Below, piece by piece: positions 6,540 through 39,295 of a stretch of 64,000 nt of DNA. The stretch is from assembly GCA_016929095.1 (NCBI GenBank), contig JAFGJM010000002.1, positions 233,580 through 297,579 of the forward strand, in the 5' to 3' direction. Made by a program: the position numbers and the translations under genes. Every line of letters begins with the position of its first letter. Position 1 is the stretch's first letter. The stretch comes from Anaerolineales bacterium. Its GTDB lineage: Bacteria > Chloroflexota > Anaerolineae > Anaerolineales > UBA4823. The notes beneath the pieces were generated by a model. It did no database searches and had not been told where the DNA came from. It saw only the letters and a program-made list of their open reading frames with translations.

Positions 6540-6542
6540 AAT

Positions 6543-21957: not shown

Positions 21958-22009
21958 TCGGTTAGATTTGCCAGGATGGCAAAATATCTTGCCATCCTGG
22001 CGTGAAATA

Positions 22010-23506: not shown

Positions 23507-24448
23507 TTAATCAGGATAATCTTCCGGCGATTCCCTCACAATGTAAAGAGGTCTACCCTTGGCTTCGTCAAATAATCTACCGATATACTCGCCAAGGATA
23601 CCAAGTGAAATCAACTGAACACCGCCTAAAAATAGTACGGCGATTAATGTGGTTGCCTGTCCAAAAAAAGCCTGGGAACCGGACTGCCGTAATATAACAA
23701 CTACCGGAATTGCCAGAATAGCAAGCCCGGCAGACACGAACCCTAAATAAGTTGCCAATTGCAACGGTAAATATGAAAAACTGGTAATAGCGTCTTTGGC
23801 AAATTTGAACATCTTTTTGAAGGGGTATTTCGTTTCGCCGGCATATCGGGCTGAACGCTCGTATTCCACGCCTGTTTGACGGAAACCCACCCACACTGAC
23901 ATACCGCGTAAAAACCGATGCTGTTCGCGCATGTTTTTTAACACATCGACTACTTTTCGATCCAGTAACCGAAAATCGCCGGTATCCAAAGGTATTTTCA
24001 CATCGGTAATGCGGTAAATGATGCGGTAAAACAATGATGCCGTGAATAATTTAAACCAGGATTCTCCCTCCCTTTTCGAGCGGATGGCATACACGACTTC
24101 AAAACCCTCCCGCCATTTTTTCAACATATCAATGATCACTTCTGGAGGATCTTGTAAATCGGCATCGATGATCACCACCGCATTTCCCCGTGCATAATCC
24201 AACCCGGCTGTAACGGCTAACTGGTGCCCAAAATTCCGGGCAAAAATAACCGGTTTGATGTGATGGTCTTCTTGTGCGAACTGTTGGATAATCTCCGTAG
24301 ACCCGTCCGTAGAGCCATCATCGATCAATAGCAGCTCCCAGTTTTCGCCGGTAGAACGCATAACGTCAGAAACCCTGCGGTAGAGTTCCGGCAAAGTTTC
24401 TTTTTCGTTGAATATCGGCGCAATGATTGAAATCACCGTTTCAGTCAT
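23507..24448 (-). CDS. Family 2 glycosyltransferase (polyprenol-phosphate sugar transferase-like, with C-terminal TM helices)
   Basis: SIIAPIFNE...LLIDDGSTDGS...VVIIDADLQDPPE (DxD region). The ATG at 24448 overlaps the upstream stop (ATGACTGA). Confidence 0.85.
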   Translation of the reverse strand: MTETVISIIAPIFNEKETLPELYRRVSDVMRSTGENWELLLIDDGSTDGSTEIIQQFAQEDHHIKPVIFARNFGHQLAVTAGLDYARGNAVVIIDADLQDPPEVIIDMLKKWREGFEVVYAIRSKREGESWFKLFTASLFYRIIYRITDVKIPLDTGDFRLLDRKVVDVLKNMREQHRFLRGMSVWVGFRQTGVEYERSARYAGETKYPFKKMFKFAKDAITSFSYLPLQLATYLGFVSAGLAILAIPVVVILRQSGSQAFFGQATTLIAVLFLGGVQLISLGILGEYIGRLFDEAKGRPLYIVRESPEDYPD

Positions 24449-25697
24449 TGATGTTTCCAACCTCTTTTTTCACGCTATCCAAATTCGGTGTAATAACTGT
24501 CGCCTCTCCGGCAGCCTGCATGGCTGCTTTCACATCTTTTAAACCGTTCCCTGTATTGATCACCAACACGGCATCGTTGTCCTTTATAATTCCCGATTGC
24601 CTGGCTTTAACTAATCCGGCATACGCTGTCGCGCCAGCCGGTTCAGCAAAAATCCCGGCTTTTCCCAACGAACTGATCGCTTTCAAGATTTCCTCATCAG
24701 TCACTAAGATATATGAACCACCGCTTTCTTTTGCTGCGCGTACTGCACGCACACCGTCTCGCGGCAAATCTACCGATATGCTGTCCGCCAGGGTGTTGGC
24801 AGAAACTGGTGTAATAGTGTCCACACCGGCATTAAACGCATTGGCAATGGCAGCCGATCCTTCAGCCTGAATACCGTATAGCGCGGGAATGGCATCGATC
24901 CAACCCAATTCGAACAAATCCTTAAATCCTTTATGGATTCCAGAAATGATATTGCCATCGCCAACAGAGACAAACACTTTCAATGGCATGCTTGAATAAA
25001 CAGCCTGCATGCCTGTCCACCATTCCCAAATTTCAAAAGCTGCGGTTTTCTTACCTTCAGCCGTGAATGGGTTAAAACCGGTGTTACGGCAATACCATCC
25101 AAATTCCTGCGACGCTTGAATGGTCAGGTCAAAGGCGTCATCATAAGTACCATCCACCAATAGGACTTTCGCGCCATAGATCAATAATTGCGCAACCTTT
25201 GCCGGAGGCGCCGTTTTGGGGGCAAAAATCACTGCTTTTTGCCCTACTGCAGCCGACATCCCCGCTAAAGCGGCACCGGCATTTCCGGTTGAGGCAGTCA
25301 CAACCACCTTGGCTTCGATTTCTCGGGCGCGTGCTACGACGACCGCGCTGGCTCTATCTTTAAATGATGCCGTTGGATTCCGGCTTTCATCTTTTATCCA
25401 TAAGTTTTTTAATCCCAATGCAGCGGATAATAACGGCGGCGAGAAAATGGGCGTTCCACCAGCTACCCGCAATGGTGTACCTTGATATCCGGGATCGGAA
25501 ACAGGCAAGATGGGTAGATACCGCCATAATGAAACTTCCGGATTACCTAATATTTTCTGCCGAGCATCCCCCATTTTTATGGCTGCATAATCCAATATCA
25601 CATCCAAATTACCCCCATCCTTCGGGCAGGTGTATGTCACCTGGTTGGCAAGATATTCCTGATTACATAACGAACATCGATATCCTAAAAAATTCAT
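24441..25697 (-). CDS. Threonine-synthase-family PLP enzyme
   Basis: N-terminal Cys-rich zinc-ribbon-like segment (YRCSLCNQEY...YTCPKDGG), then NPTASFKDRAS (PLP lysine) and ASTGNAGAALA. Confidence 0.8.
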   Translation of the reverse strand: MNFLGYRCSLCNQEYLANQVTYTCPKDGGNLDVILDYAAIKMGDARQKILGNPEVSLWRYLPILPVSDPGYQGTPLRVAGGTPIFSPPLLSAALGLKNLWIKDESRNPTASFKDRASAVVVARAREIEAKVVVTASTGNAGAALAGMSAAVGQKAVIFAPKTAPPAKVAQLLIYGAKVLLVDGTYDDAFDLTIQASQEFGWYCRNTGFNPFTAEGKKTAAFEIWEWWTGMQAVYSSMPLKVFVSVGDGNIISGIHKGFKDLFELGWIDAIPALYGIQAEGSAAIANAFNAGVDTITPVSANTLADSISVDLPRDGVRAVRAAKESGGSYILVTDEEILKAISSLGKAGIFAEPAGATAYAGLVKARQSGIIKDNDAVLVINTGNGLKDVKAAMQAAGEATVITPNLDSVKKEVGNIND

Positions 25698-25706: not shown

Positions 25707-26705
25707 CTATTCACTCTCAAATGGCACTCCCAAAGCTGCAGGAGGCGAGGCGCGTAAGGCGCGCAACAGACGTGAAATGGCTTTTCGTGACGGCTCGGGA
25801 ATAGCTGCCAGGGTCCTTTCAACCCATTCGGCATTACCGATATTGACAAATAATAAAGTCAGGATCATCAATGGGAATGGCGCCACTTGCAACACTTGCG
25901 ATGGAATATTTGGTAATGCCGGTTGCAGCACCAGGCCAAGCCATTGCAGCAAGGAAAATAGATAGCAGCCAAAGGCGGCTCGGATTGGATCCCATCCACC
26001 AAAAATGGTGATCGAAAGCGCTATCCAACCAATGCCATCCAATCCTGAAATCGTGCCCTTCCACCCATATTTCACACTTAGCGAATAAGTGACTCCGGCT
26101 AATCCAATTAATGCCCCCCCCAATACTGTGTAGATATAACGCAATCGATTAACGTTTGCCCCTCTCACAAAAGCTGAAGCCGGTCGCTCTCCTATGCCTT
26201 GCAAAATCAATCCCGGGCGGGTTTTATAAATCCATACCCATACAATGATTATGCCAAGGTAACTTATATATGTCAGGTAATCCTGGCGGAATAAAAGTGC
26301 TCCAAAGATCGGAATATCTTTTAGCACGGGTATCGACCAGGATGAAAGCCTTGGCCCTGTCAATCCCATATACGGATTGCCCAAGAAATAAGACAGGTCA
26401 CGGCAGACCATTGTCAATACAAATCCCACCGCTACCTGGGATTGTTTTAAAGTAATGCTCGAAAAAGCCAACACCAAGGCTACCAAACCACCAATGATCA
26501 TACCCGTGATGAAGCCCCAAAAAAGACTCCCGGTACTTACTGAAACAGCAAAGCCTCCCATGGCAGCCAATAAAATCGTGCCGTTCATGGAAAGGTTAAT
26601 AACACCCGCTCTTTCAGAGATTGTTTCTCCAAGTACGGCAAAAAGAACCGGCGCTGCCGAGGCAAGTACCCCTGCTAATCCAATTATCAATGTGTCTGTG
26701 GTCAT
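25707..26705 (-). CDS. ABC transporter permease (BMP/nucleoside-type, second permease)
   Basis: 332-aa polytopic protein in an SBP-ATPase-permease-permease operon. Confidence 0.85.
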   Translation of the reverse strand: MTTDTLIIGLAGVLASAAPVLFAVLGETISERAGVINLSMNGTILLAAMGGFAVSVSTGSLFWGFITGMIIGGLVALVLAFSSITLKQSQVAVGFVLTMVCRDLSYFLGNPYMGLTGPRLSSWSIPVLKDIPIFGALLFRQDYLTYISYLGIIIVWVWIYKTRPGLILQGIGERPASAFVRGANVNRLRYIYTVLGGALIGLAGVTYSLSVKYGWKGTISGLDGIGWIALSITIFGGWDPIRAAFGCYLFSLLQWLGLVLQPALPNIPSQVLQVAPFPLMILTLLFVNIGNAEWVERTLAAIPEPSRKAISRLLRALRASPPAALGVPFESE

Positions 26706-26717
26706 TATTTATTTACC

Positions 26718-27758
26718 TCATGTGCGCCGTAAATAACGCTGACGGATTCCCTCAACCATGAGAACGAATAAAACAAGCATCCCTTGTAAAACGCCAGAAA
26801 GAGAAGAATCCATTTTCAGCACAATGGGCAATTGAATGCTGCCAATATTCAATGCCGCATAAAACAAAGCTACAGGCGCAGCCCAAATTGCCTGGTAATT
26901 TACCAGCATGGCTACCAGTAACCCCAGGTAACCATAGCCGCTGGAAATTGAAGGGATCAGGCGGTGATAAACTGCCGTAACTTGCATGGCGCCTGCCGCA
27001 CCTGCAAATATGCCGCACAGAAAAAACGCAGCCATCATGTGCTGCCAGGTGGGGATACCTAAAAGATGGGCTGCTCTGAAATTTTTCCCTACTGCTTTTA
27101 AACGCAAACCAAAATATGTCCCTTGCAGTAAGAAATAAACCGCTACAATCGATGCAATGGCTAATCCTAGCGCCCAATAGCTCAGATCATAATCAGGGAT
27201 TTGTGGCAGCCACAATTCTTCGGGGAAGGGCTGGGTTCCACTCATGGAGCCTACTCCAGGACGTTTCCAGGGACCAAAGATCAACCATAAAGTCAATGCT
27301 GTTGCCACAAAATTCAACCCAAGCCCGCCAAAAATTTCATTTACTCCGCCAAATGTTTTTAATGCGCCTGCTAAAGACGCCCATATTGCCCCGCCAATCA
27401 TCCCTGCCAGAATACTCAAAAAAATGATCCATCCTGGCGCTATTGCGCTATCCTGAAAAAGCCGTAATACCCAGGTTGTGGCAATCGCTCCCAATACAAT
27501 CTGACCTTCTACACCGATGTTCCATAATCCAGTAGAAAAGGTGATTAAAAGCCCGGCAGTTGTCAATAATAGCGGGATCCAGGAAAGCAATACTTTTGAA
27601 ATGCGATCCAAAGAGCCAAAAGAGCCCTTGATGATGTTCGCATAAGCTTCCAATGGGGGGGCATCGGCTGCCAGCATGATCAATGTGGTCAATAACAGGG
27701 CCATCAAAACAGCCGCTAATTGAATAAGCAGATTCGCCCAGCGGGTATTCTTAAGCAT
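26718..27758 (-). CDS. ABC transporter permease (BMP/nucleoside-type, first permease)
   Basis: Start set at ATG 27758, with AAGGAG upstream and an ATGCTTAA overlap with the ATPase stop. Polytopic. Confidence 0.85.
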   Translation of the reverse strand: MLKNTRWANLLIQLAAVLMALLLTTLIMLAADAPPLEAYANIIKGSFGSLDRISKVLLSWIPLLLTTAGLLITFSTGLWNIGVEGQIVLGAIATTWVLRLFQDSAIAPGWIIFLSILAGMIGGAIWASLAGALKTFGGVNEIFGGLGLNFVATALTLWLIFGPWKRPGVGSMSGTQPFPEELWLPQIPDYDLSYWALGLAIASIVAVYFLLQGTYFGLRLKAVGKNFRAAHLLGIPTWQHMMAAFFLCGIFAGAAGAMQVTAVYHRLIPSISSGYGYLGLLVAMLVNYQAIWAAPVALFYAALNIGSIQLPIVLKMDSSLSGVLQGMLVLFVLMVEGIRQRYLRRT

Positions 27759-29250
27759 AGACGTCTCCTTGTTGTTCGAATTTCTCTGCCCATCCTTTTC
27801 CACCAATCAATTGACCAAGTTGCTCCACACTGGTTGCAGATGCATCCAGTGGCGGTGATACCCGTCCGCTAAAGAAGACCAATACCCTGTCGCTGTACTG
27901 CAAAATCTCTTCCAGGTCGGCTGATACAAAAATAATGGCAGTTCCTTGACGGCAGCGTTCTTTTAGTTTTCCCCAAATATATATAACCGATTCGATATCC
28001 AAACCCCGTGTGGGATGTTCTAATAGAATTAAGGACAGGGGTGAATTAAGTAATGCCAGCAACGCTCGCTGCTGGTTACCCCCAGAAAGCGCTTCAACAG
28101 GACTTAGAGGTGTTCCTCGAATATTGAATGAAGTGATGCGCTCTTTTGTCTCACGTTCCCACCTCTCACGATCGATGAACATCCCTTGCCCTTTTTCTGC
28201 GAGGATAAAATGCTCGGTTAGCGATAATCCTGGAATTAACCCCTCCTCCAGGCGAGAAGCAGGTAAAAACCCCACGCCATGATTTTTGTATGCCAGGTAA
28301 GGTTTTCCGGTCAGGTCTTTCTCGCCAACAATCACCTTGCCTTGAGTGGGTCGTAATAAACCGGCACACGCTCGTAAGAATGGGCGTTGCCCGGAACCTT
28401 CCATGCCCGCCAACCCAATGACTTCGCCGGCGCGTAATGTGAGATCAACACTCTCGAGCCGCAGACGGTAATCTTCAACGACAAAATTATGCAAGGATAA
28501 TGCCGAATTTCCGAAAGGGCAGGGTTGTTTGGCTTCCACAGAGATGACCTTACTGAACATCATCTCTACAAGTTTATCGATTTCAAACGGTGCATCGGCT
28601 TCTCCCACCAAGATCCCTTGGCGTAATACAGCCACTTGATTGCATAATTGTTCAACATCCTCCAATTTATGCGAAACGAAAATGATGGTCTTCCCTTGCT
28701 TTGCCAATGTTTTTAATGTGGCAAAGAGTTTCTCTTTTTGCAGGGCGCTAATACCAGTGGTTGGTTCGTCCAGGATCAACACCCGTACCCCCAACCAAAG
28801 CAGTCGTAAAATTTCTAATTGCTGCCGTTCGCCGACAGTCAGTGAATCAACATAGGATTCGGGATCTAAGGCGAAATCAAATTCATTCGCCAGTTTGATA
28901 AAATCTTTACGGGCTTCTTTTTTATTAGGAAATACTCCCCCTTCTCGACCGACGATAAAATTGTCGATGATACGCATGGGAGGAAAATCCAGCGGATCTT
29001 GGTGCAACATTCCTATACCATGTTGAATAGCATCTGCCGGAGAACGAACGCTGATCGGTTTACCGTCTAATAGAATTTTTCCCTCATCCTCCTGGATGAA
29101 CCCCGAAAGGACTTTCATCAATGTGCTCTTCCCGGCGCCATTTTCCCCCAGAATACCTTGAATCGTACCAGCTTGTATGGCAAGATTGATATTGTTATTC
29201 GCGTGAACTGTGCCAAACGATTTGTGAATTGCTTTTAATTCAACCTTCAT
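27751..29250 (-). CDS. ABC transporter ATP-binding protein with duplicated NBDs
   Basis: Walker A GENGAGKST, signature-like LSGGNQQR, Walker B LILDEPT and LILLEHPT. 499 aa. Confidence 0.9.
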   Translation of the reverse strand: MKVELKAIHKSFGTVHANNNINLAIQAGTIQGILGENGAGKSTLMKVLSGFIQEDEGKILLDGKPISVRSPADAIQHGIGMLHQDPLDFPPMRIIDNFIVGREGGVFPNKKEARKDFIKLANEFDFALDPESYVDSLTVGERQQLEILRLLWLGVRVLILDEPTTGISALQKEKLFATLKTLAKQGKTIIFVSHKLEDVEQLCNQVAVLRQGILVGEADAPFEIDKLVEMMFSKVISVEAKQPCPFGNSALSLHNFVVEDYRLRLESVDLTLRAGEVIGLAGMEGSGQRPFLRACAGLLRPTQGKVIVGEKDLTGKPYLAYKNHGVGFLPASRLEEGLIPGLSLTEHFILAEKGQGMFIDRERWERETKERITSFNIRGTPLSPVEALSGGNQQRALLALLNSPLSLILLEHPTRGLDIESVIYIWGKLKERCRQGTAIIFVSADLEEILQYSDRVLVFFSGRVSPPLDASATSVEQLGQLIGGKGWAEKFEQQGDVYA

Positions 29251-29310
29251 GAGTTATCCTGTTGGAAAATGACGCAATCACCCCAATGGAGGTGAACGAT
29301 AAAAAATACT

Positions 29311-29446
29311 GAGGGCTGCTCAAAAAGTTTGCGCCTTCCTGAGTGAAGCGAAGGAGTCTGGAATATTGCATTCAGGAACATATCTGCGTATTCGCATCAC
29401 TCAGGAGAGATCGCGTTGATGCTTTTCCACTTTTTAAACAGCCCTG
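29311..29446. other. Nested imperfect inverted repeat (long intercistronic stem-loop) between the SBP and ATPase genes
   Basis: Outer arms are 29311-29328 and 29429-29446 (15/18 complementary). Inner arms are 29338-29352 and 29391-29405 (14/15 complementary). Confidence 0.5.
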
Positions 29447-29461
29447 ATAAAAATAAAGGTT

Positions 29462-30790
29462 TTACTCAGAAACGCTTTGGCCTTCCATGCCCTCCAGAAG
29501 CTGCGGCAGATACCAAACTTGCAAATCGGTAGCGACTTCGCCTTCTGCCAGGAAAGGTGTGCCATCCTGTAAGTTCAAGGGGCCAGTCCACAGCTCCAGC
29601 CCGCCAGCTAACTCGGCGATGAATTCATCCATCTTTGCGGTGGATTCTTCGCTGAGTGCTGCACCCTTCACAAACCCGACGGCAGTTGTGTCCGGGTTAT
29701 TGATGTCTGCCCAATCCGGACCATTCCATTGGAAATTCGAAGTCCACGTACCATCCACGGCTGTGGTAACTGTCTCAAGGAACGCGGGACCCCAGTTGAA
29801 ATAGGGAACACCCAGGCAAACTGATGCGCCTTCCTCGCAGGCACCAACATAATCATAGGCAATACCCCAAACATTTTTCCCAGAATCAGAGAACTTCTTG
29901 GCTTCTGTTAATGCTTCAGTGGTATCGATACCTGAGATGACAACATCATAGTCACTGTTTATGAAATCATCGGCAACTTGTGTCGGGTCAGAAGTGACAC
30001 CCGGGATATTGAACCAAAAGCCAATCCAGGTAACCTTTAACGACAAATCAGCAGGGTCGTTGCCAAGGTAATTGGTCCAACAATATTTCGCGCCCAGGTA
30101 TACCGAGGCTGCCAGGCGGCGGGTTTCATCATTGATCAATGGTCCAAGATAACCAATCTTCCCGGTCTGAGTGGTAAGCGCAGCCGCACAGCCAGCCATC
30201 ATCTTGCCATATTCCATGCGCCCCATGATATTTACCAAATTGGGAAGCTCTACATAGGCTTTTCCCTCTGGCCAGACCTGATCACCCGAAGCCATGATGA
30301 CATTGACATCGGGATGCGCCTGAGCAAATTCTGTAGCGCTATCCTTCATATCATCCGAGTTAAAAATGACCAGCTTGGCGCCTTGGGCAACCAGTTCTTC
30401 ACCCAATGAAGCAGGGGTTGTCCCGGGGCGGTCCGCCGTGTTGACTTTATCGATGTAAACCAGCTTTGTGCCGGGGAGCTTCTCCTCGACATATAATGCG
30501 CCTTCATAGGTAGCCTGGCTCCAGCCATGATCGTTATATGGACCTACCATTAATAAGCCAAAAACAAACTCTTCAGGCTCTGCGGGGGCTTCGGTCGCCT
30601 CTGGCTCGGCAGGGGCTTCGGTCACCTCTGGTTCGGCAGGAGCTTCGGTGGCGACAGGTTCGGCTGGCGCTTCAGTAGCCGCTGGTTCAGCCGGCGCTTC
30701 CGTGGGAGCAGCGGCAGGCGTGCATGCGCCTAAAACCATCGAAAATACAATCAACAAGGCAAAAATTGGTACAAACTTTTTTGTAAACAT
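29462..30790 (-). CDS. BMP-family (Med/PnrA-like) ABC substrate-binding lipoprotein, probable nucleoside/purine binding
   Basis: Lipobox LGAC, a Pro/Glu/Ala/Thr-rich tether, then a BMP-like body (GLLMVGPYNDHGWSQA...). It heads the ABC operon. Confidence 0.85.
   Translation of the reverse strand: MFTKKFVPIFALLIVFSMVLGACTPAAAPTEAPAEPAATEAPAEPVATEAPAEPEVTEAPAEPEATEAPAEPEEFVFGLLMVGPYNDHGWSQATYEGALYVEEKLPGTKLVYIDKVNTADRPGTTPASLGEELVAQGAKLVIFNSDDMKDSATEFAQAHPDVNVIMASGDQVWPEGKAYVELPNLVNIMGRMEYGKMMAGCAAALTTQTGKIGYLGPLINDETRRLAASVYLGAKYCWTNYLGNDPADLSLKVTWIGFWFNIPGVTSDPTQVADDFINSDYDVVISGIDTTEALTEAKKFSDSGKNVWGIAYDYVGACEEGASVCLGVPYFNWGPAFLETVTTAVDGTWTSNFQWNGPDWADINNPDTTAVGFVKGAALSEESTAKMDEFIAELAGGLELWTGPLNLQDGTPFLAEGEVATDLQVWYLPQLLEGMEGQSVSE
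30572..30703 (-). repeat. Coding tandem repeat (about 24-nt unit, about 5 copies) encoding a TEAPAEPxx linker
   Basis: The protein reads PTEAPAEPAATEAPAEPVATEAPAEPEVTEAPAEPEATEAPAEPEE. The DNA shows the matching periodicity. Confidence 0.8.
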
Positions 30791-31317
30791 TTTGTTATTC
30801 TTCTCCTCTTAGAAAAATTTTATCCAATTTGGTTATTTTCGAGATATTATTCTTTTTCAGCCGATTAACCTCCTCTCTTATAGTTGTCCAGACATTAGCA
30901 CCTGATTATAAATGATATTCTAAAATCCATAAATTTTTTTCTTGTGTATCAGATACTTTCAGACATAATTTTGTTACTTTCGTTAAAATAACCCTATTCT
31001 ATTTGAAGGTTCGGCTTTTTCTCGATTTTCCAAATCCCATTATATTACGTTTAATTGCAGGCACACTGAAATTAATAAAACTTTTTAAAGCAGCATTCAA
31101 AACGATGAATAATAACAAATTTATATGGGTAAAGCCTTCGCCCTATATAAACCAGGTATAAACAATAAAATCAATACCCTTATACTGCTCCACCTCGCCC
31201 TTGTTTCCTCCTCATACTTTCTGTGTGAAAGTACAAGGAGGAATGGGGTTAGATTACATATGGGTAAGGTAAAACTACTTCTCTCTTTGATCCTTTAGAT
31301 CAATCTATTTTTTTTAA

Positions 31318-32289
31318 TCATTCTCTGACAATTAATGTGCCGGTTTCACCTTTCAACGCTCGGCCGATATTTTCCGGATTGGTAATAATGGCTTGTTTGC
31401 CGCCCGATTCCAAAAACCAGATGATAGCCTGGATTTTGGGAGCCATGGATCCTTTGGCAAAATGAATACCTTCATCCAGGTATTGTTTAGCTTCTGCCAT
31501 GGTCATCCGATCGAGCCACTTTTGATTTGGTTTACCAAAATTGATAGCAACTTTTTCTATCGCTGTTGAAATCAAGAAGAGGTCGGCATGGATATTCTGA
31601 GCGAGTAAGCTGCTGGCATAATCTTTATCGATGACAGCCGCGGTACCTTGATAAACGCCCTCGCCTACATCGATCACCGGAATGCCGCCACCACCCACGG
31701 TGATAACTACCACTCCGGCATCGACCAGGGTTTGGACTGTTTCAAGCTCAACCACTTCCTTGGGCAAGGGCGAAGCCACAACCCGCCGCCAACCACGTCC
31801 GGCATCTTCTACCACACTCCAACCCATTTCAGCTTTTCGTTTCATGGCTTCGGATTCATCTAAAAATCCACCGATAGGTTTACTTGGATTTTGAAATGCC
31901 GGATCATCAATGTCTACCAATACTTGTGTGATCACCGTGGCAACCGGTTTCGCAATGCGGCGCTTATACAACTCATTCTGCAAATTTTGTTGGAGGGCGT
32001 ATCCAATCGCGCCCTGGCTGTCTGCACCGCAAACATCCAAAGGCACTTCATGCATGCCTTCAACTTTAGCAGCGATTTCAGAACGGCGTAATATAAAACC
32101 AACTTGCGGGCCATTGCCGTGTCCGATAGCCACATCCCATCCGGCTTCAATCATATCGGCGATGTGTAATGTGGTCTCTTTAGCAGCCAGATATTGATCT
32201 TCTACGGTTTGGTGTTGTTTATCCTTGATCAGCGAATTACCGCCAATCGCCACCACCGCAACTTTTTTGGTTTCCTTGGATATTGTCAT
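31318..32289 (-). CDS. arcC: Carbamate kinase
   Basis: VVAIGGNSL and GHGNGPQVG motifs. 323 aa. Confidence 0.9.
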   Translation of the reverse strand: MTISKETKKVAVVAIGGNSLIKDKQHQTVEDQYLAAKETTLHIADMIEAGWDVAIGHGNGPQVGFILRRSEIAAKVEGMHEVPLDVCGADSQGAIGYALQQNLQNELYKRRIAKPVATVITQVLVDIDDPAFQNPSKPIGGFLDESEAMKRKAEMGWSVVEDAGRGWRRVVASPLPKEVVELETVQTLVDAGVVVITVGGGGIPVIDVGEGVYQGTAAVIDKDYASSLLAQNIHADLFLISTAIEKVAINFGKPNQKWLDRMTMAEAKQYLDEGIHFAKGSMAPKIQAIIWFLESGGKQAIITNPENIGRALKGETGTLIVRE

Positions 32290-32293
32290 ACAC

Positions 32294-33274
32294 TTACCTC
32301 ATTGTTAAAGCCATCACCGCTTTTTGAGCATGCAAACGGTTTTCTGCCTCATCAAATACAACCGACTGTGCGCTGTCAATGACGCCATCAGTGACTTCAA
32401 TATTGCGATCAGCCGGTAAAGGATGCATGTAAATAGCATCGTCTTTAGCTAATGCCATCTTTCGCTCATCGGTGATCCAATGTTCATATTTCTTGATGAT
32501 TTTCGCGCCTTCATCGGGATCGGCTGTATGCACCATCGCTCCCCAAGATTTCGCGTATATGATATCCGCATCTTTAAAAGCGGCTTCCATATCATCCACG
32601 ACTTCAAAACCGGTGTGGAATTTTCTGGCTTGTTCGCGTGCCTGGTCCATGATATCCGGCATTAATTTGAATTCTGGGGGATGCGCTAAAACAACATCCA
32701 GGCCAAAGCGCGGCATTTGCAAGATCAGTGATTGCGGTACCGACATCGGTTTTTGATATGAAGCAGCATAAGCCCAGGATACGACCATTTTCTTGCGGCG
32801 TAAATCTCTGCCTTTCTTTTCAATAATGGTCATCAAATCTGCTAATATCTGAAAAGGATGGTAGATCTCACATTGCATATTAAGCACCGGTGAGCGAGAA
32901 AACTTCGCCACATCGTTGATGTACCGGTTGCCTAATCCCCAATCACAATGGCGGATGGCGATACCATCGTAATATCTGCCAAAGATTTCCCCGATTTCAT
33001 GGGGTGTATCACCGTGAGCGATCTGAGTAGTTTTACTTTCGATAAATGCCGCATGACCGCCTAATTGCGCCATGCCCGCTTCGAATGAACCGCGCGTGCG
33101 CGTGCTTGAAAAGAAGAAAAGCATAGCCAGCGTCTTATCACGCAAGATTGGGTGCAGTTCTCCCAGAGCGCGCTTTCGTTTTAAATCAAACGCCACATCT
33201 AATACGGTTTCTACTTCTTCTTTGCTGAAATCCAGGTCGCCAATTAAATCTCTTCGTGTAAGATCGGTTTGCAT
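32294..33274 (-). CDS. YgeW-like carbamoyltransferase (OTC/ATC superfamily)
   Basis: Start is ATG 33274 with GGAGG upstream. Motifs SSTRTRGSFE, TQIAHGDT, NMQCEIYHPFQ, SWAYAASYQKPMSVPQS, FKDADIIYAKSW and YMHPLPAD closely parallel E. coli YgeW as I recall it. Confidence 0.8.
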   Translation of the reverse strand: MQTDLTRRDLIGDLDFSKEEVETVLDVAFDLKRKRALGELHPILRDKTLAMLFFFSSTRTRGSFEAGMAQLGGHAAFIESKTTQIAHGDTPHEIGEIFGRYYDGIAIRHCDWGLGNRYINDVAKFSRSPVLNMQCEIYHPFQILADLMTIIEKKGRDLRRKKMVVSWAYAASYQKPMSVPQSLILQMPRFGLDVVLAHPPEFKLMPDIMDQAREQARKFHTGFEVVDDMEAAFKDADIIYAKSWGAMVHTADPDEGAKIIKKYEHWITDERKMALAKDDAIYMHPLPADRNIEVTDGVIDSAQSVVFDEAENRLHAQKAVMALTMR

Positions 33275-33282
33275 ATTACCTC

Positions 33283-34236
33283 CTATTCCATCGCCCCTAA
33301 TACCAAAGCAATAATTGCCATGCGCATCACCACACCATTGAATGCTTCCTGCCAATAACGTGACCAGCGTGTAATATCAACATCAGACGGAACCTCATCC
33401 ATGCGCGGCAGAGAGTGCAACAAGATAGCATCCGGTTTGGCTTTCTTCTCTAGAAGCTCACGGGTGATCTTGTAATTTGCTGGAGTTAAGTCAACGCTTC
33501 CGGTGCGTTCATCGCGTGATTTAGTATAGTCGGGCTGTACCACCGGCTCGACCAAAATCACATCTGCATCTTTAATCGCCTGCTCCACGTGTTCAGCTTC
33601 TTTGAAGTCCAGGCTGTATTGTTTAAGTTCTTCTTTAAATTCTTTGGTCAATGACATCTCGGGGGGTGCAACAAAAGTGATCGGGCAATCGAATTGGGTA
33701 AGTGCATACCCCAATGAATGCATGGTGCGCATCCGCATATCGCCCACAGCCAGCCACTTCAAACCATCAATGCGCCCCTTTTCCCGCAATACGGTATACA
33801 GGTCTGTCAGGATTTGAGTGGGGTGCTCTCCCCAGCCATCACCGCCATTGATAATGGGAATCGAAGCCCATTTCGCAGCTTCGTGAGGAGCGCCTTGTTG
33901 AAAATGCCGCATCACGATGACATCGCCGTAGAATTCCAGCATTTTCACGGTATCTTTGATCGATTCCTGGTAGAAGTCACCGGCACGGGTCATCTTGGCG
34001 TCTGCAAAACCGGTCACATGCCCGCCCAGGCGGTGCATAGCTGCTTCATGCGCCAAGCGGGTGCGTGTGCTGGGTTGATAGAAAGCCGTTACCAGGGTTT
34101 TTTCAGCCAGCATGTCACTATTGCGTCGACTCCGTGGGATCGATTCCAATTCTCGAGCAACATCAAATATGTGCATAAATTCATTGCGCTCGAATTCCTT
34201 TAAAGATAATATATCTCGACCTAAAAAACTACGCAT
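33283..34236 (-). CDS. Aspartate-carbamoyltransferase-family protein (PyrB-like paralogue)
   Basis: PSTRTR, GDGWGEHPTQ and LHSLPR..EV..DVD motifs. 317 aa. It is embedded in a catabolic-looking operon with no pyrI or pyrC nearby. Confidence 0.8.
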   Translation of the reverse strand: MRSFLGRDILSLKEFERNEFMHIFDVARELESIPRSRRNSDMLAEKTLVTAFYQPSTRTRLAHEAAMHRLGGHVTGFADAKMTRAGDFYQESIKDTVKMLEFYGDVIVMRHFQQGAPHEAAKWASIPIINGGDGWGEHPTQILTDLYTVLREKGRIDGLKWLAVGDMRMRTMHSLGYALTQFDCPITFVAPPEMSLTKEFKEELKQYSLDFKEAEHVEQAIKDADVILVEPVVQPDYTKSRDERTGSVDLTPANYKITRELLEKKAKPDAILLHSLPRMDEVPSDVDITRWSRYWQEAFNGVVMRMAIIALVLGAME

Positions 34237-34266
34237 GGGAACTCTCCTTTATATTATTAAGAATTT

Positions 34267-35004
34267 TTATTGGTTTTTTTTTATATTTCCAACCCGGCGA
34301 ACAACATGAAACCGAAAGTAACCGGGAATAAAATAACTATAGGAATAATCTACTACCATTCCGTCGTTCGTATACAACCAGGCAATCAAACGCAAGAGAA
34401 CATCACCGCGTTGAATACCGAAAGCTTTTGCCAATTCAACTGAAGCTGGTACTGCATTGATTTCGCAGCGAGACGAAGTATAGGTTGATGGTTCTTTCCT
34501 TTGCAAAAGATCTAACACTGAGCCAGTAAAAGTTTCATCTAAATCTTCTGCCTGGATGATGCCTTGGGGTAATGTATCTATAAGAAACGCAATCGGCCTC
34601 CCTTCAGATAATATTAACCTGGAAAATTGCACAACTTCTTCTTCTTTAGAAATATTTAGTGCAATCGCCTCTTCCTCATCACATAGACGATGGTCAATTT
34701 TTAATCTCCCCAAGGATACTTCCAAACCACATCGTTTCGCCAGGGTTTCAATACTTTCCAGCACTTCGAGACCGGTCTCAATCACCGGTGAAATGGGTAA
34801 AACATAAGTACCAGAACCTTGCCGGCGTGTGATGATTCCTTGGATTTCAAAAGTGCGCATGGCTTCCCTAAGCGATGCCCGAGATACTCCCAGGCGGCGC
34901 GCCAGTTGCGGTTCAGCCAATAATTTTTCCCCCGGCTTTTTCTCTTTGATGATCTCACTCAGAACTTCGTGTAAACGTTGAGAGATGGTGTATCCTTCAC
35001 TCAT
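34267..35004 (-). CDS. GntR-family transcriptional regulator (HutC-like, wHTH + UTRA)
   Basis: LAEPQLARRLGVSRASLREAMRTFEIQGIITRRQGSGTYV (GntR wHTH) and a 245-aa length typical of the UTRA-containing subfamily. Confidence 0.85.
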   Translation of the reverse strand: MSEGYTISQRLHEVLSEIIKEKKPGEKLLAEPQLARRLGVSRASLREAMRTFEIQGIITRRQGSGTYVLPISPVIETGLEVLESIETLAKRCGLEVSLGRLKIDHRLCDEEEAIALNISKEEEVVQFSRLILSEGRPIAFLIDTLPQGIIQAEDLDETFTGSVLDLLQRKEPSTYTSSRCEINAVPASVELAKAFGIQRGDVLLRLIAWLYTNDGMVVDYSYSYFIPGYFRFHVVRRVGNIKKNQ

Positions 35005-35014
35005 TTGTACTCGT

Positions 35015-36811
35015 TCACGCCTCTAAAACTGGGATGAATTCAAATTTTGTGACATCTACTAATCCTTTATCCGAAAGGCGTAATTCGGGGATAACGACTA
35101 ATGCTAATAAACTCAGTTGCATATTGGGGTTATTAAGGTTACAACCGCATGCGTGAAAACCATCCAAGACGGATTTCGCTTTTTCTGCCACCACCTTCGC
35201 ATGTTGGTTGGACATTAACCCCGCAATTGGCAATTCCACTTTACCAATCACGTTTCCTTCGAGAACAACGACCTGACCGCCTTCCATGCGCACCAGTTCA
35301 TTGGCAGCCAATGCCATTTGAGTATCATCCGTTCCGACTACAATCATTTGATGACAATCATGCGCTACGGTGGAAGCAATGGCGCATTTCTTGTTGAATC
35401 CAAAACCATGTACCAACCCGATTTGTATACCGCCATCTCCTTTGTGACGTTCCACGACCGCGATTTTGGCGATATCATTCTCAATATCCATTGGAACTTC
35501 GCCATCAATCACCGGCACCGTCATCCGTAAATGTTGGGTAGGCGCCTGATTCTCGATCACCCCAATTACATTTGCCCATACTTGTGTTATCAATGCATCT
35601 GTTGTTTTCAGAGCAAAATCATCTGCTCTCAATGACCTTTTAATATGTATGGAATGAATGGCCCAATCCGGATAGGTATAGCCAGGAATATCGATAACCA
35701 CCTGATTCTGGCGAGATATCACCTTCCCTTTTGCGATCACAGTATCGATTTTTATCTCAGACAGGTTATCGAGAATAAGAATGTCCGCAAATCGACCCGG
35801 GGCAATCATTCCCACCTTTCGGGAAACGCCAAAATGCTCGGCCGTGTTTATGGTTGCCATCTGGATTGCCTGCATGGGTGAAGCGCCTTGAGCGATCGCA
35901 CGTTTAACTGCCCGGTTCACATGACCATCATTCACTAATGTTTCGCAGTGGGAATCATCGGTGCACAATATGAAATGCCTGGTATCCATACCCAATTCAG
36001 TGACAGCTTTAATTTGAGCATCCACGTCATGCCAGGCAGAACCAAAACGCAGCATGGCTTTCATGCCTTGACGTATACGAGCTACTGCATCTTCAAGACG
36101 TGTACCTTCATGGTCGTCTTCCGGTCCACCAGCCACATAACCATGGAAAGGCAATCCTAAATCGGGAGAAGCGTAATGTCCGCCAATTACTTTACCAGCC
36201 AATCGCGTTTCTGCCATTTCGGCGTGCATTTTTTCATCACTAAAATATACACCCGGGAAATTCATCATTTCACCCAGGCCAATCACGCCCTCAAGCTGCA
36301 TCGCCTTGGCAACATCCGCCGGGCCAATGCTTGCCCCTGGCGTCTCCAATCCGGGCGCTGAAGGAACACATGAAGGCATTTGCACCCATACATGAATCGG
36401 CTGGTTAGCAGCTTCATCTACCATTAATTGGACGCCCTTCAACCCAAAAACATTGGCAATTTCATGAGGATCAATAAAAATCCCGGTAGTTCCATGTGGA
36501 ATAATGGCGCGCACGAACTCCGTGATTGTGATCATCCCCGATTCGATGTGCATATGCCCATCTAAAAGACCCGGGCACAGATACTGCCCATTTGCATTAA
36601 TGATTTGCGTATTATCACCAATCGTATGCGCCGCATCTTCTCCCACAAAAGCGATGCGTTGGTCTTTAATGGCGATATCCGTATTTGGGATTATCTCGCC
36701 AGACTGTACACAAACCCATTGCCCGTTGCGGATCACCATATCGGCAGGAGTACGCCCCATTGCTACATCGACAAGAGTTTGCGAAATTTTCATGATTTCG
36801 TTTGAATTCAT
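35015..36811 (-). CDS. ade: Adenine deaminase
   Basis: LCPGLLDGHMHIES metal site and a roughly 600-aa two-domain architecture. Start ATG 36811 is preceded by GGAGAG. Confidence 0.85.
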   Translation of the reverse strand: MNSNEIMKISQTLVDVAMGRTPADMVIRNGQWVCVQSGEIIPNTDIAIKDQRIAFVGEDAAHTIGDNTQIINANGQYLCPGLLDGHMHIESGMITITEFVRAIIPHGTTGIFIDPHEIANVFGLKGVQLMVDEAANQPIHVWVQMPSCVPSAPGLETPGASIGPADVAKAMQLEGVIGLGEMMNFPGVYFSDEKMHAEMAETRLAGKVIGGHYASPDLGLPFHGYVAGGPEDDHEGTRLEDAVARIRQGMKAMLRFGSAWHDVDAQIKAVTELGMDTRHFILCTDDSHCETLVNDGHVNRAVKRAIAQGASPMQAIQMATINTAEHFGVSRKVGMIAPGRFADILILDNLSEIKIDTVIAKGKVISRQNQVVIDIPGYTYPDWAIHSIHIKRSLRADDFALKTTDALITQVWANVIGVIENQAPTQHLRMTVPVIDGEVPMDIENDIAKIAVVERHKGDGGIQIGLVHGFGFNKKCAIASTVAHDCHQMIVVGTDDTQMALAANELVRMEGGQVVVLEGNVIGKVELPIAGLMSNQHAKVVAEKAKSVLDGFHACGCNLNNPNMQLSLLALVVIPELRLSDKGLVDVTKFEFIPVLEA

Positions 36812-36856
36812 TTTCTCTCCGAAAAATTTTGTGAACAAAATTTCGTTGAATACGAA

Positions 36857-38239
36857 TTATCCATCAATTAATATTTTTGCGGCTCGATTATGTTTATAGA
36901 TCAAATCCTCGATATCTATATTGGCCATTTGCCCGTTTTTTACCACGTAATCCCCACCTACCACTGTATAATCGACACGCACCGGTGCACAGAAAACAAT
37001 CGCAGCGACCGGATCGTGGATTGCGCCGGTAAATTCTATGCGGTTAAGATTTACGGCAAAGAAATCTGCGCATTTCCCCGGTTCAAGGGAACCAATATCC
37101 TTGCGCCCCAGAACAGAAGCGCTGCCTCGGGTAGCCATTTCTAAAGCCTGGCGGGCAGTCATGAGCGGCATTTCTCCGCCAGACAGAGAAGCGCCCTGCA
37201 ATCCTGCTTTCAATCGGGCAACCATCATCGCCAGGCGGATTTCTTCAATCAAGTTGGAGCCGTCATTGCTGGCGGAGCCATCCACACCAATGCCTACCTT
37301 GACACCGGCATGTAACATATCCATGATTGGCGCAATCCCCGAAGCCAGGCGCATATTCGAAGCCGGGCAATGCGCCACACCGCATCCTGTACGTTTGTAT
37401 ACATCGATCTCTGCCTTAGTTACATGCACCGAATGCGCAAACCAGACATCGTCGCCCACCCAATCCAGGCTTTCCATATAAGCTACCGGGCGGTAGCCAA
37501 ATTTTTGCAGGCAAAATTGCTCTTCGTCCTGTGTCTCTGCCAGGTGTGTGTGCAAACGAACGCCATAGGTACGCGCCATTGCTGCACTTTGCTTCATCAA
37601 TTCCCCGGTTACACTAAAAGGTGAGCAGGGCGCCAATGCAATTTGTATCATCGAACCTGGCGCGGGATCATGGTAAGTCTCGATCACCCGCTGCGTATCT
37701 TTAAGAATAAAATCTTCACTCTCAACGACGCTATCCGGAGGCAAACCCCCTTTGGACTCCCCCAAACTCATCGAGCCGCGCGTGGCGTGCAGCCGTAATC
37801 CCACTTTTCTGGCTGATATGATTTCATCATCCAGGCGGGAACCGTTGGGAAATATATACAGATGATCGGAAGCTGTGGTGCAGCCGGACAAAGCCATCTC
37901 CGTAAGGGCGGTTTGGGTGGATATTCGAATATGTTCCGGCGTCATTTTTGCCCAAATTGGGTAAAGCGTCTTCAACCAATGGAAAAGATTGGCATTTTGT
38001 GCTTTTACCACCACCCGCGTCAGGGTCTGATAAAAATGATGGTGGGTGTTTATCAAACCTGGGGCTACCAGGCAGCCAGTAAGATCCAGGACTTCATCGG
38101 CTGTATTCGGTAAATCTTTGGAAAATCCAACTTGTTCGATGAAACCGTCCCGAACAAAAAGACCACCGTCAGGAATTTCCTGGCGGAGGTCATCCATTGT
38201 AACTAATACAGCAGCATGTTTTACTAATAGCGTCGACAT
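36857..38239 (-). CDS. COG0402 amidohydrolase (8-oxoguanine/guanine deaminase, SsnA-like family)
   Basis: PGLINTHHHFYQTL, LHTHLAETQDEE and GVDGSASND motifs. Start set at ATG 38239 (MSTLLVKHAAV...). Confidence 0.8.
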   Translation of the reverse strand: MSTLLVKHAAVLVTMDDLRQEIPDGGLFVRDGFIEQVGFSKDLPNTADEVLDLTGCLVAPGLINTHHHFYQTLTRVVVKAQNANLFHWLKTLYPIWAKMTPEHIRISTQTALTEMALSGCTTASDHLYIFPNGSRLDDEIISARKVGLRLHATRGSMSLGESKGGLPPDSVVESEDFILKDTQRVIETYHDPAPGSMIQIALAPCSPFSVTGELMKQSAAMARTYGVRLHTHLAETQDEEQFCLQKFGYRPVAYMESLDWVGDDVWFAHSVHVTKAEIDVYKRTGCGVAHCPASNMRLASGIAPIMDMLHAGVKVGIGVDGSASNDGSNLIEEIRLAMMVARLKAGLQGASLSGGEMPLMTARQALEMATRGSASVLGRKDIGSLEPGKCADFFAVNLNRIEFTGAIHDPVAAIVFCAPVRVDYTVVGGDYVVKNGQMANIDIEDLIYKHNRAAKILIDG

Positions 38240-38263
38240 CTCTTCTCTCACTAATAAGTATCG

Positions 38264-38322
38264 AATTGTCTGACAACAATAGTCTATCAAAAAAAAGTCT
38301 CTTTGTCAATTGTCAGACAATT
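38264..38322 (-). promoter_or_regulatory. Promoter of the deaminase-to-carbamate-kinase operon, flanked by two palindromic operator candidates
   Basis: Read on the minus strand: TTGACA (38304-38309), a 17-nt spacer, then TAGACT (38281-38286). A perfect 15-bp palindrome AATTGTCAGACAATT (38308-38322) abuts the -35. A second copy, AATTGTCTGACAAC (38264-38277), lies just downstream of the -10. Confidence 0.45.
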
Positions 38323-38407: not shown

Positions 38408-39295
38408 TTACTCTTTCACACCCTGAGTCATCTTTGCAGAATGTACCGTATTTCTCATCAGCATGGCGATGGTCATGGGGCCTACGCCACCGGGAACCGG
38501 GGTGATGGCGCTGGCGACTTCTTTCACCTCATCAAACATCACATCACCAACCAGGCGAGAACCTTTTGGATGGGTTGGGTCTTCGATGCGGTTGATACCC
38601 ACATCGATCACGACGGCGCCGGGTTTCACCCAGTCGCCGCGCACCATCTGCGCCCGTCCGACTGCCGCGATCAATACATCCGCCCCGCGGCATATTCCGG
38701 GCAGGTCTTTACTGCGCGAGTGGCAGATAGTAACAGTGGCGTTCTCACGCACTAACAACAAGGCAACCGGCATACCCACGATATTCGAACGTCCCAACAC
38801 CACGGCATTACAGCCTTCCAGCTTGGTACCTATGAGCTTCAGCATGTAAACACAACCATAGGGGGTGCAGGGGACAAACAAGGGATCGCGACCTTTCTGC
38901 GCCAACCGACCGATATTGATTGGATGAAAGCCGTCCACGTCTTTCTCAATGCTGATCGATTTGAGTACAGCCTCTTCATCCAGGGGACTGGGCAAAGGTA
39001 ATTGCACCAAAATACCGTCCACTCGTGGATCAGCATTTAATTCTCTAACTAATCCTTCCACTTCTTCCTGAGATGCCGTGGCTGGAAGTGTGTGCCCAAA
39101 GGATTCGATGCCAGCTTCGGCGCAAGCCTTTTGTTTCGAGCTGACGTACACTTTTGAAGCCGGGTTATCCCCCACCAATACCGTTGCCAATCCCGGAACG
39201 CGTAAACCCGCTTCTTTTAATTTTGTGACATCCTTGCCAGCTTGTTCACGGACCTGTAGCGCAAGCGCTTTTCCATCAATTATTGTTGCAGTCAT
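38408..39295 (-). CDS. folD: Bifunctional methylenetetrahydrofolate dehydrogenase/methenyl-THF cyclohydrolase
   Basis: GRSNIVGMPVALLL and PGGVGPMT motifs. 295 aa. Confidence 0.9.
   Translation of the reverse strand: MTATIIDGKALALQVREQAGKDVTKLKEAGLRVPGLATVLVGDNPASKVYVSSKQKACAEAGIESFGHTLPATASQEEVEGLVRELNADPRVDGILVQLPLPSPLDEEAVLKSISIEKDVDGFHPINIGRLAQKGRDPLFVPCTPYGCVYMLKLIGTKLEGCNAVVLGRSNIVGMPVALLLVRENATVTICHSRSKDLPGICRGADVLIAAVGRAQMVRGDWVKPGAVVIDVGINRIEDPTHPKGSRLVGDVMFDEVKEVASAITPVPGGVGPMTIAMLMRNTVHSAKMTQGVKE

Follow-up and report, generated by a model that had tools for sequence, protein, structure and literature searches.

An operon pairing two carbamoyltransferases with one carbamate kinase in an Anaerolineales bacterium: a candidate variant of reductive purine fermentation

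Why should an operon with a single carbamate kinase encode two different carbamoyltransferases? The question is raised by a 64,000-nucleotide stretch of contig JAFGJM010000002.1 from an uncultured Anaerolineales bacterium, referred to here as the window, in which six co-oriented minus-strand open reading frames (ORFs; called span 31318–38290) follow one another in the order g1-g2-g3-g4-g5-g6. Families were assigned with Pfam and NCBIfam models, with bit scores compared to curated cut-offs. The first gene, g1 (36857–38239), encodes a COG0402 amidohydrolase matching the 8-oxoguanine deaminase equivalog NF006055 (681 bits, cut-off 532), g2 (35015–36811) an adenine deaminase with an Adenine_deam_C domain (TIGR01178, 514 vs 472 bits), and g3 (34267–35004) a GntR/HutC-type regulator with a winged helix-turn-helix (PF00392) and a UTRA effector domain (PF07702). 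The two carbamoyltransferases, both with OTCace_N/OTCace domains, are the PyrB-like g4 (33283–34236), with its best match to the aspartate carbamoyltransferase (ATCase) model TIGR00670 (254.6 vs 236.95 bits), and the 326-residue g5 (32294–33274), which falls under all curated cut-offs. Carbamate kinase is encoded by g6 (31318–32289; PRK12352/NF009007, 415 vs 266 bits; TIGR00746, 378 vs 358). The answer considered probable here is that the operon provides for aminopurine entry and energy conservation in the reductive urate pathway of purine fermentation, in the form that this takes in Anaerolineales and other environmental bacteria, with two phosphorolytic ureido cleavages, one of them by an enzyme standing in for the hydrolase of most bacteria. 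A more tentative proposal, which we regard as plausible without favoring it outright, is that g4 represents a new specificity derived from ATCase, that of an N-carbamoyl-2,3-diaminopropionate (2-ureido):phosphate carbamoyltransferase, which together with an HPLP-type homologue of YgeW would provide two ATP per purine in Chloroflexota and Actinomycetota.

An earlier note on this DNA, made from the sequence alone, had described six tightly spaced minus-strand genes of these families and in this order as one operon, and the ORFs and family models agree. After the starts of g1 (ATG at 38239), g2 (ATG at 36811) and g5 (ATG at 33274) are refined from the DNA, each with a GGAG-type ribosome-binding site before it, the intergenic gaps from g1 to g6 are 45, 10, 30, 8 and 4 nt, close to the 2–46 nt estimated earlier. 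The extent first assigned to the operon, 31318–38322, holds for the coding part up to 38239, but its upper end is noncoding and contains the promoter and operator region. Dozens of independent contigs from genomes and metagenomes have the genes in the identical order, indicating that the arrangement is not due to chance. In relatives g3 is held at its operon position, and in one relative the entire block from folD, upstream of g1, to the pyridoxal phosphate (PLP) enzyme genes downstream of g6 is syntenic.

In E. coli the ygeW cluster encodes the reductive urate (2,8-dioxopurine) pathway, which was solved in 2025 (PMC12507026; bioRxiv 10.1101/2025.04.24.650524). According to these reports XdhD, YgfK, SsnA and HyuA act in that order to yield 2,3-diureidopropionate, from which YgeW with inorganic phosphate and YqeA generate ATP via carbamoyl phosphate; YgeY hydrolyses the second ureido group to give diaminopropionate, and YgeX converts this to pyruvate. 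The substrate of YgeY in the scheme of Liu et al. is a 2-ureido compound, and SsnA clusters in Chloroflexota were already recorded by Li et al. The window holds a lower-pathway set consisting of a hydantoinase, a carbamoyltransferase and a carbamate kinase, with g4 standing in the position of ygeY and two PLP enzymes of the PALP family in that of ygeX; neither YgeX nor YgeY is found in the 64 kb by tblastn. The earlier suggestion that the genes mirror the E. coli ygeW-ygeX-ygeY-hyuA-yqeA/ssnA set therefore stands for hyuA, ygeW and yqeA, which have counterparts here, but not for ygeX, ygeY and ssnA, which do not.

The reactions at the two ends of the operon are the simplest to assign. Adenine deaminase g2 converts adenine to hypoxanthine, and g6, which is 52% identical to E. 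coli YqeA, converts carbamoyl phosphate and ADP to ATP, NH3 and CO2. The product of g1 probably channels an aminopurine into the pool of oxopurines; its identity to E. coli SsnA is 23% and to GuaD 28%. Equivalence of g1 to SsnA, suggested by the SsnA-type logic first attributed to the operon, is ruled out by scores of 154 and 139 bits with SsnA models having cut-offs of 444 and 455, and g1 is of the 8-oxoguanine-deaminase type instead. In two related loci (L015 and L019) g1 and a true SsnA gene lie side by side.

The identity of g5 is less direct. Among E. coli MG1655 reference proteins, YgeW shares 35% identity with it and ArgI 29%. It scores below cut-off with the ornithine carbamoyltransferase (OTC) models (256 vs 306 and 249 vs 281 bits) and the acetylornithine carbamoyltransferase (AOTC) model (252 vs 288 bits), and it lacks the OTC signatures DxxxSMG and HCLP, having AKSWGAM and HPLP instead. 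The segments WAYxxSYxKPxSVPQ, NMQC and KSW are common to g5 and YgeW. Residues predicted to contact the substrate of YTCase include Q160, S200, K203 and K270 as well as the HCLP motif (Shi et al., PMC4581275). All four residues are kept in g5 (within NMQC, SYQK and KSW), but conservation does not extend to D124, and HPLP stands in place of HCLP; the YgeW-specific insertions and C-terminal extension are absent. The family is narrow, in that a whole-library HMMER search places full-length relatives at 40–55% identity, the nearest of them all below the curated cut-offs and true AOTCs further away. Distance-based trees (neighbor joining (NJ) of 133 sequences and a 41-taxon bootstrap analysis) recover a core g5 clade with 99% support, a clade uniting g5 with Woeseiaceae-type relatives (L023/P0244), E. 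coli YgeW and the YgeW-like sequence P0278 with 87.5%, and a wider clade of all urate-context homologues with 79.5%, apart from the AOTC and OTC clades. The YgeW-like identity proposed for g5 in the earlier note is thus borne out by its position in the YgeW clade and not among anabolic OTCs. An AlphaFold2 model built from a shallow alignment has a mean pLDDT of 69, with active-site loops below 50, and the top Foldseek matches of this low-confidence model, AOTC 3kzm and the P. furiosus OTC (TM 0.6–0.7, rmsd 6–7 Å), do not discriminate between OTC and the knotted AOTC/YgeW type.

The genomic context of g5 relatives adds to this assignment. A scan with the g5 alignment over one genome per GTDB species gave 80 loci, of which the 31 closest (L006–L036) were analysed; for annotation, proteins of the window and of the E. 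coli ygeW cluster served as tblastn queries, and curated models were applied to sampled neighbour ORFs. Homologues of 45–90% identity occur in seven phyla (represented by Chloroflexota, Actinomycetota, Gammaproteobacteria of the family Woeseiaceae, Acidobacteriota, Atribacteria, Marinimicrobia and Clostridia). Their neighbours include genes for XdhA/XdhD-like proteins, YgfK, SsnA, YgeY, hydantoinases and carbamate kinase, as well as the two PLP enzyme genes known from the window. The SsnA, YgfK, YgeY, HyuA and Xdh genes adjoin relatives of 45–69% identity. Among the sampled neighbours, YgeY proteins score 450–626 bits (cut-off 321) and SsnA proteins 490–532 (cut-off 444), a D-hydantoinase passes its model, and one partial gene has its best match to the YgfK model. 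Upper-pathway genes stand beside the g4–g5 pair itself in L015, L019, L021, L022, L108, L125 and L152, and recognisable neighbours are lacking in L012, L013 and L016, where the contigs are truncated or the flanking genes unrelated. Both carbamoyltransferases have hundreds of relatives of 86–92% identity in Anaerolineae and Chloroflexota metagenomes, annotated as aspartate or ornithine/acetylornithine carbamoyltransferases, and a protein with 100% identity to g4 is on record from an NCBI Anaerolineales metagenome-assembled genome. Because the gene set around its relatives is that of the reductive urate pathway, g5 is taken, on the basis of clade and context, as the putative YgeW equivalent of this pathway. 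A fermentative purine route with ureido phosphorolysis and ATP formation by carbamate kinase, as the earlier note proposed, draws support from the clade of g5, the context of its relatives and the similarity of g6 to YqeA and of the window hydantoinase to HyuA.

The second carbamoyltransferase, g4, presents the opposite case of a protein with a familiar name and an altered active site. It aligns end to end with ATCases (E = 2.5e-67 with the P. abyssi enzyme; 34% identity to E. coli PyrB), and in an alignment of 14 members of the g4 family the carbamoyl-phosphate site is kept in all 14, comprising S52-T53-R54-T55 (STRTR), R105 (MRH) and H134/Q137 (HPTQ). R167 is likewise kept across the family, and g4 thus resembles PyrB in full-length alignment, carbamoyl-phosphate site and R167. 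It differs from PyrB in the remainder of the substrate site. ATCase motif S-x-KKGE (K83/K84) is replaced by TRAGDFYQE in all aligned members, with loss of K84, and DLKYGRT by DMRM-RT; TRxQKER, which contains R229 and Q231, becomes EPVVQ[PA]DYT in all members, within a 240s loop having a five-residue insertion; and HPLP (or HPGP) becomes HSLP in all members, replacing P266. A pyrI or pyrC context is also absent. The protein passes TIGR00670, as do its relatives at 261–262 bits, and fails NF002032 (227 vs 263 bits). The pass accounts for the public name “aspartate carbamoyltransferase” but is at odds with the residue comparison.

In the 41-taxon NJ tree the g4 clade is supported by 100% of bootstraps, and its members are 65–90% identical across Chloroflexota, Actinomycetota and Atribacteria, whereas canonical ATCases reach at most 38%; in a plasmid collection, a tblastn search for g4 homologues gave only canonical pyrB, at no more than 38% identity. 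One metagenome contig with a g4–g5 pair, L104, also encodes a canonical ATCase (2221–3105) with TRIQKER and HPLP and 43% identity to E. coli PyrB. This second gene lies about 4 kb from g4 and adjoins a YgfK-like gene. The loss of aspartate-site residues, the separate clade and the separately encoded canonical ATCase of L104 together argue that g4 is not the housekeeping PyrB despite its TIGR00670 score. The possibility, raised in the earlier note, that the PyrB-like gene is simply the pyrB of the genome is not upheld, since g4 is without the PyrB residues that bind aspartate.

In ATCase structures R229 and Q231 hold the beta-carboxylate of aspartate and R167 holds the alpha-carboxylate. With R167 kept and the beta-carboxylate ligands exchanged for conserved E, D, Y and Q, the predicted substrate site of g4 fits an N-alpha-carbamoyl amino acid with an amino or ureido side chain, for example 3-amino-2-ureidopropionate or diureidopropionate.

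The g4 and g5 genes travel together. A g4-anchored scan of metagenome contigs gave 80 loci, and 111 related loci were analysed overall. All 32 g4-anchored loci having at least 2.5 kb on both sides contain g5 and carbamate kinase. Two architectures are seen, a Chloroflexi type in which g1-g2-g3-g4-g5-g6 lie on a single strand, and an actinobacterial type in which g5 and a GntR gene are read in one direction and g4, the carbamate kinase gene and both PLP enzyme genes in the other, divergently. Genes for Xdh, SsnA and YgfK are nearby in several of the g4-anchored loci. Among the g5-anchored loci, 13 have g4 as the immediate upstream neighbour of g5 and nine have YgeY there, with both genes present in one (L017), an alternation with a Fisher p of 1e-5 that is uncorrected for relatedness among loci that are not phylogenetically independent, and to which loci with neither gene contribute no information. 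Of the g4-anchored loci, 55 are informative in this respect, and no more than 4 of them also have YgeY. A strict replacement of YgeY by g4 was considered and then softened to a partial one, given the four further loci with both genes in the metagenome scan.

The sequence of g5 varies with the presence of g4. Where g4 is present, g5 combines HPLP with AK[SA]W in 62 of 68 loci, and another locus with HPLP has no K[SNA]W match; where g4 is absent, g5 combines H[CA]LP with PKxW in 12 of 18 loci. The pairwise distances among g4 sequences correlate with those among g5 sequences (r = 0.60, Mantel p ∼0.001). The g5 tree nevertheless shows YgeY-bearing and g4-bearing clusters interleaved, with L010 and L011 among the g4 bearers, and in L026, from Atribacteria UBA6251 (10001–16252), g4 is 75% identical to that of the window but the g5 homologue, of HALP type, only 46%. 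The interleaving and the combination in L026 suggest repeated exchange; L026 in particular suggests lateral transfer of g4 into a different type of cluster. The M20 gene of L026 is an ArgE/DapE-type deacylase, not YgeY. A gene of 526–699 codons is inserted between g4 and g5 in some Chloroflexota relatives, namely L006 (7851–9950), L153 (7967–10057) and L141 (6217–7797); the sole family match of the L006 product, to the L-lactate permease family PF02652, is below threshold (16.6 bits, gathering 27), and it may be a membrane protein.

A precedent for the pairing of g4 with g5 is the pseudo-ATCase that Barba et al. (2013, PMC4016543) described, with no function assigned, in a single organism, Nocardioides sp. 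JS614, where its neighbours are xdhABC, hyuA and a homologue of ygeW. By description, g4 resembles the pseudo-ATCases in keeping STRT and HPTQ, in having H[S/T]LP for HPLP, in having lost RxQ and in its ygeW-like neighbour. The arrangement of pseudo-ATCase and ygeW-like gene in a purine context reported for JS614 is also seen in actinobacterial loci L018, L020, L022 and L032. The present loci go beyond that report in showing that the g4–g5 pair is widespread, that its link to carbamate kinase is strict and that g4 for the most part alternates with YgeY.

A mechanism consistent with these observations can be proposed. The BMP-type transporter encoded downstream of the operon would import the substrate, and g1 and g2 would deaminate aminopurines (an 8-oxoguanine-type substrate to urate and adenine to hypoxanthine, respectively), under repression by g3 at palindromic operators. 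A molybdenum hydroxylase, a ring reductase and SsnA, encoded elsewhere, together with the nearby hydantoinase would take the purine to 2,3-diureidopropionate. As YgeW does, g5 would phosphorolyse one ureido group of this compound to carbamoyl phosphate. The predicted role of g4 is phosphorolysis of the remaining group, most likely the 2-ureido (N-alpha-carbamoyl) group, which E. coli hydrolyses with YgeY. Carbamate kinase g6 would convert both carbamoyl phosphates, for a predicted yield of up to two ATP per purine compared with one, and the two PLP enzymes would probably take over the job of YgeX on 2,3-diaminopropionate.

Several points weigh against this mechanism. By tblastn with E. coli proteins, the 64 kb contain no molybdenum hydroxylase (XdhD/DOPDH), YgfK-type reductase or SsnA. 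The low identity of g5 to YgeW is accompanied by failure of the curated YgeW models NF005538 (190 vs 453 bits) and TIGR03316 (182 vs 500 bits), and the g5 structural model is too poor for its active site to be examined. ATCase uses an L-amino acid, L-aspartate, while the intermediates described in the literature have the (R) configuration. The predicted order of cleavage is affected by a disagreement between the two 2025 papers over which ureido group YgeW removes, to which Percudani has drawn attention (PMC12990295). The activities of g4 and g5 are themselves predictions from sequence and context. Finally, YgeY and g4 occur together in five loci (L017, L140, L144, L163 and L165), indicating that g4 is not simply a YgeY substitute and that it may have a distinct substrate.

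This last point supports an alternative in which the cluster does serve reductive purine degradation but g4, rather than replacing YgeY, acts on some other ureido substrate in a side branch that also feeds carbamate kinase. Candidate substrates would be the opposite enantiomer of the ureido-propionates, ureidomethyl-hydantoin or 5-ureido-dihydrouracil (cleaved at the ureido group of the side chain), or pyrimidine-derived N-carbamoyl-beta-alanine. The window hydantoinase also matches the dihydropyrimidinase model, which counts in favor of this alternative. On the other hand, no YgeY is seen in 51 of the 55 informative g4 loci, g4 occupies the YgeY position beside g5, and the active-site motifs of g5 change with the presence of g4. 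Retention of R167, the alpha-carboxylate ligand, argues against a beta-amino-acid substrate, and the window has no PydA-like gene. We consider this alternative unlikely, though it deserves more weight than the two that follow.

According to a second alternative, g4 would be a ureidoglycine carbamoyltransferase (UGTCase) like Rxyl_2847 of Rubrobacter xylanophilus, and the operon would serve an allantoin/allantoate route. Rxyl_2847 converts allantoate and inorganic phosphate to ureidoglycine and carbamoyl phosphate (PMC4016543; PMC4581275), and by description it is similar to g4 as an ATCase-branch enzyme encoded next to carbamate kinase, with a catabolic role on a purine-derived ureido acid; the HSLP of g4 also fits the H[S/T]LP pattern that the same papers give for UGTCase. 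But Rxyl_2847 belongs to an oxidative uricase/allantoinase cluster, whereas the neighbours of g4 are reductive-pathway genes (Xdh, SsnA, YgfK, HyuA and YgeY), and neither the window nor the 111 loci contain a uricase, 5-hydroxyisourate hydrolase, allantoinase or allantoate-related gene in tblastn searches with window and E. coli proteins and family scans of sampled ORFs. The window hydantoinase, moreover, scores 224 bits with the allantoinase model, for which the cut-off is 358. A UGTCase function for g4 is therefore very improbable.

Hardly credible at all is a third alternative, that g4 is an ordinary or catabolic ATCase and g5 an anabolic OTC or AOTC, clustered by chance or for carbamoyl-phosphate supply, for although g4 and its relatives pass TIGR00670 (254–262 vs 237 bits) and public records name the two proteins aspartate and ornithine carbamoyltransferase, g4 lacks K84, R229, Q231 and HPLP, g5 lacks DxxxSMG and HCLP and is below all OTC and AOTC cut-offs, a YgeY peptidase takes the place of g4 in sister genomes, g4-bearing L104 encodes a canonical ATCase 4 kb away, and no pyr or arg genes are adjacent.

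The control region of the operon (38265–38321, minus strand) was identified by sequence reading and a promoter scan. A promoter-like TTGACA-17-TAGACT site at 38309–38281, upstream of g1, has a copy of the palindrome ATTGTCTGACAAT on either side, at 38309–38321 and 38265–38277. This motif has nine matches in the window where 2.2 are expected; one operator-like site, found by motif scan, lies at the stop codon of g6 (31320–31332), and the motif recurs 50–110 nt upstream of g1 in L001, L006, L007 and L008. The regulator g3 is presumed to be the repressor of the operon and may bind these palindromes and regulate its own expression, a prediction with which the recurrence of the motif is consistent. 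On the minus strand at 30890–30912, about 100 nt upstream of the gene for the BMP binding protein, a TATAAT box precedes ATGTCTGGACAAC, which is related to the operator palindrome, and the transporter may belong to the same regulon as the operon. An Rfam search of the 527-nt gap between g6 and the transporter gave no riboswitch, purine or other. The folD gene (38408–39295, minus strand), which is immediately upstream of g1 in many Chloroflexota loci (L006, L007, L015, L019, L113 and others), was considered as an operon member and set aside, as it ends in a terminator-like hairpin directly upstream of the operon promoter, and the hairpin and promoter together separate it from g1.

Downstream of the operon, all on the minus strand, are the genes for several other proteins invoked in the mechanism. 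As the earlier note had reported, a BMP ABC transporter (25707–30790) and a D-hydantoinase (19739–21160) follow on the same strand, and both are confirmed by family matches. The transporter, of BMP/PnrA type and 527 nt downstream of g6, consists of a binding protein (29462–30790), an ATPase (27751–29250) and two permeases (26718–27806 and 25707–26705); it is a probable purine or nucleoside uptake system, and its adjacency to the operon is kept in relatives. The hydantoinase/dihydropyrimidinase passes TIGR02033 (517 vs 393 bits) and is 38% identical to E. coli HyuA, and hydantoinase genes are also present in the clusters of L018, L019, L022, L026, L027 and L033; it is the probable HyuA equivalent, opening the ring of ureidomethyl-hydantoin to give 2,3-diureidopropionate. 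About 35 kb from it is a gene of the Asp/Glu/hydantoin racemase family (55864–56580, plus strand), which is possibly relevant to hydantoin stereochemistry, or unrelated.

Between the transporter and the hydantoinase are two PLP enzymes separated by a glycosyltransferase. The first is a threonine-synthase-like (ThrC-like) enzyme of fold type II (24441–25697; PALP 250 bits; TIGR00260, 190 vs 167 bits), with threonine synthases in the PDB matching at ∼1e-56, and the second is a 488-residue CysK/CBS-like enzyme (22010–23476; PALP 47 bits) with distant cysteine synthase matches in the PDB. The gene for the latter is present in 13 of the 31 g5-anchored loci and in many g4-anchored ones. In at least six phyla the two enzymes accompany g5 and carbamate kinase in clusters without ygeX (L006–L033, L087–L152), and a true diaminopropionate ammonia-lyase (YgeX) is found in L028 only, which is without both of them. 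From this co-occurrence, the two PLP enzymes may take over the job of YgeX on 2,3-diaminopropionate; alternatively, they may change the end product of the pathway. The intervening GT2 glycosyltransferase (23507–24460; PgfS/ArnC-like by family matches) has no obvious role in purine catabolism, and its position is kept in Chloroflexota loci L006, L007, L010, L015, L019 and L112. A small protein (21406–22044) without Pfam or NCBIfam match is encoded directly after the 488-residue PLP enzyme; it has homologues of 38–46% identity in L015 (15970–16356), L019 (16133–16507) and L112 (∼8014), in the first two of which the gene is directly before ssnA.

Elsewhere in the window, SelB, the selenocysteine-specific elongation factor, is encoded at 12931–14835 (minus strand), which indicates selenoprotein synthesis in this organism; dependence on selenium recurs in the published work on the urate pathway. 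A c-di-GMP-I-GGC riboswitch (9129–9206, minus strand; 66.7 bits, gathering 59) lies inside the 5′ end of a called ORF (7732–9219) without Pfam match, just downstream of a 1123-codon gene with DUF11 repeats and a sortase domain (9433–12804). A glmS ribozyme (50981–51198, plus strand) precedes the glmS gene at 51311–53164. The genes yidC, jag/khpB, a PfkB-like kinase, parA and parB (3202–7400, plus strand) form a set typical of the neighbourhood of a chromosomal replication origin, and cumulative GC skew has no turning point within the window.

Set against known systems, the operon shares with the E. coli ygeW cluster a YgeW-clade carbamoyltransferase followed by a YqeA-like kinase, a HyuA-like hydantoinase, proximity (seen in relatives) to genes of the SsnA, YgfK and Xdh types, and the predicted recovery of ATP from a ureido group via carbamoyl phosphate. 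It differs in the short form of g5, with HPLP for HCLP and scores below the YgeW cut-offs; in the replacement, for the most part, of YgeY by g4 and of YgeX by two other PLP enzymes; in having an adenine deaminase and an 8-oxoguanine-deaminase-type gene within the Anaerolineales operon; in a GntR regulator as opposed to sigma-54/YgeV; and in upper-pathway genes that are not adjacent in the window. Arginine and agmatine deiminase pathways, which combine OTC or putrescine carbamoyltransferase (PTC) with carbamate kinase, follow the same logic of ureido phosphorolysis to carbamoyl phosphate and substrate-level phosphorylation, but with one carbamoyltransferase and one ATP per substrate, whereas here there are two carbamoyltransferases, one kinase and putative purine substrates. 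No mention of a form of the reductive urate pathway with two carbamoyltransferases was found in the searchable literature, which for this pathway comprised two primary papers and a commentary, and the g4–g5 operon form is a real, conserved and widespread variant of the pathway that has not been described previously.

These findings provide the orphan pseudo-ATCase family with a specific functional hypothesis. The g5-type form would escape surveys with a threshold of 63% identity to YgeW (bioRxiv 10.1101/2025.04.24.650524), and if the proposed roles are correct, thousands of database entries for “aspartate” or “ornithine carbamoyltransferase” are misnamed. The roles of g4 and g5 would then also bear on the disputed order of ureido cleavage (PMC12990295), for which the two-enzyme clusters would be a comparative test case, and a new substrate specificity would be added to the transcarbamylase family. 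The ATP yield of the anaerobic urate pathway would be doubled relative to the single ATP known for YgeW/YqeA from gut bacteria, which would show how slow-growing environmental fermenters, Anaerolineales of sediments and digesters as well as Actinomycetota, gain more energy from nucleobases.

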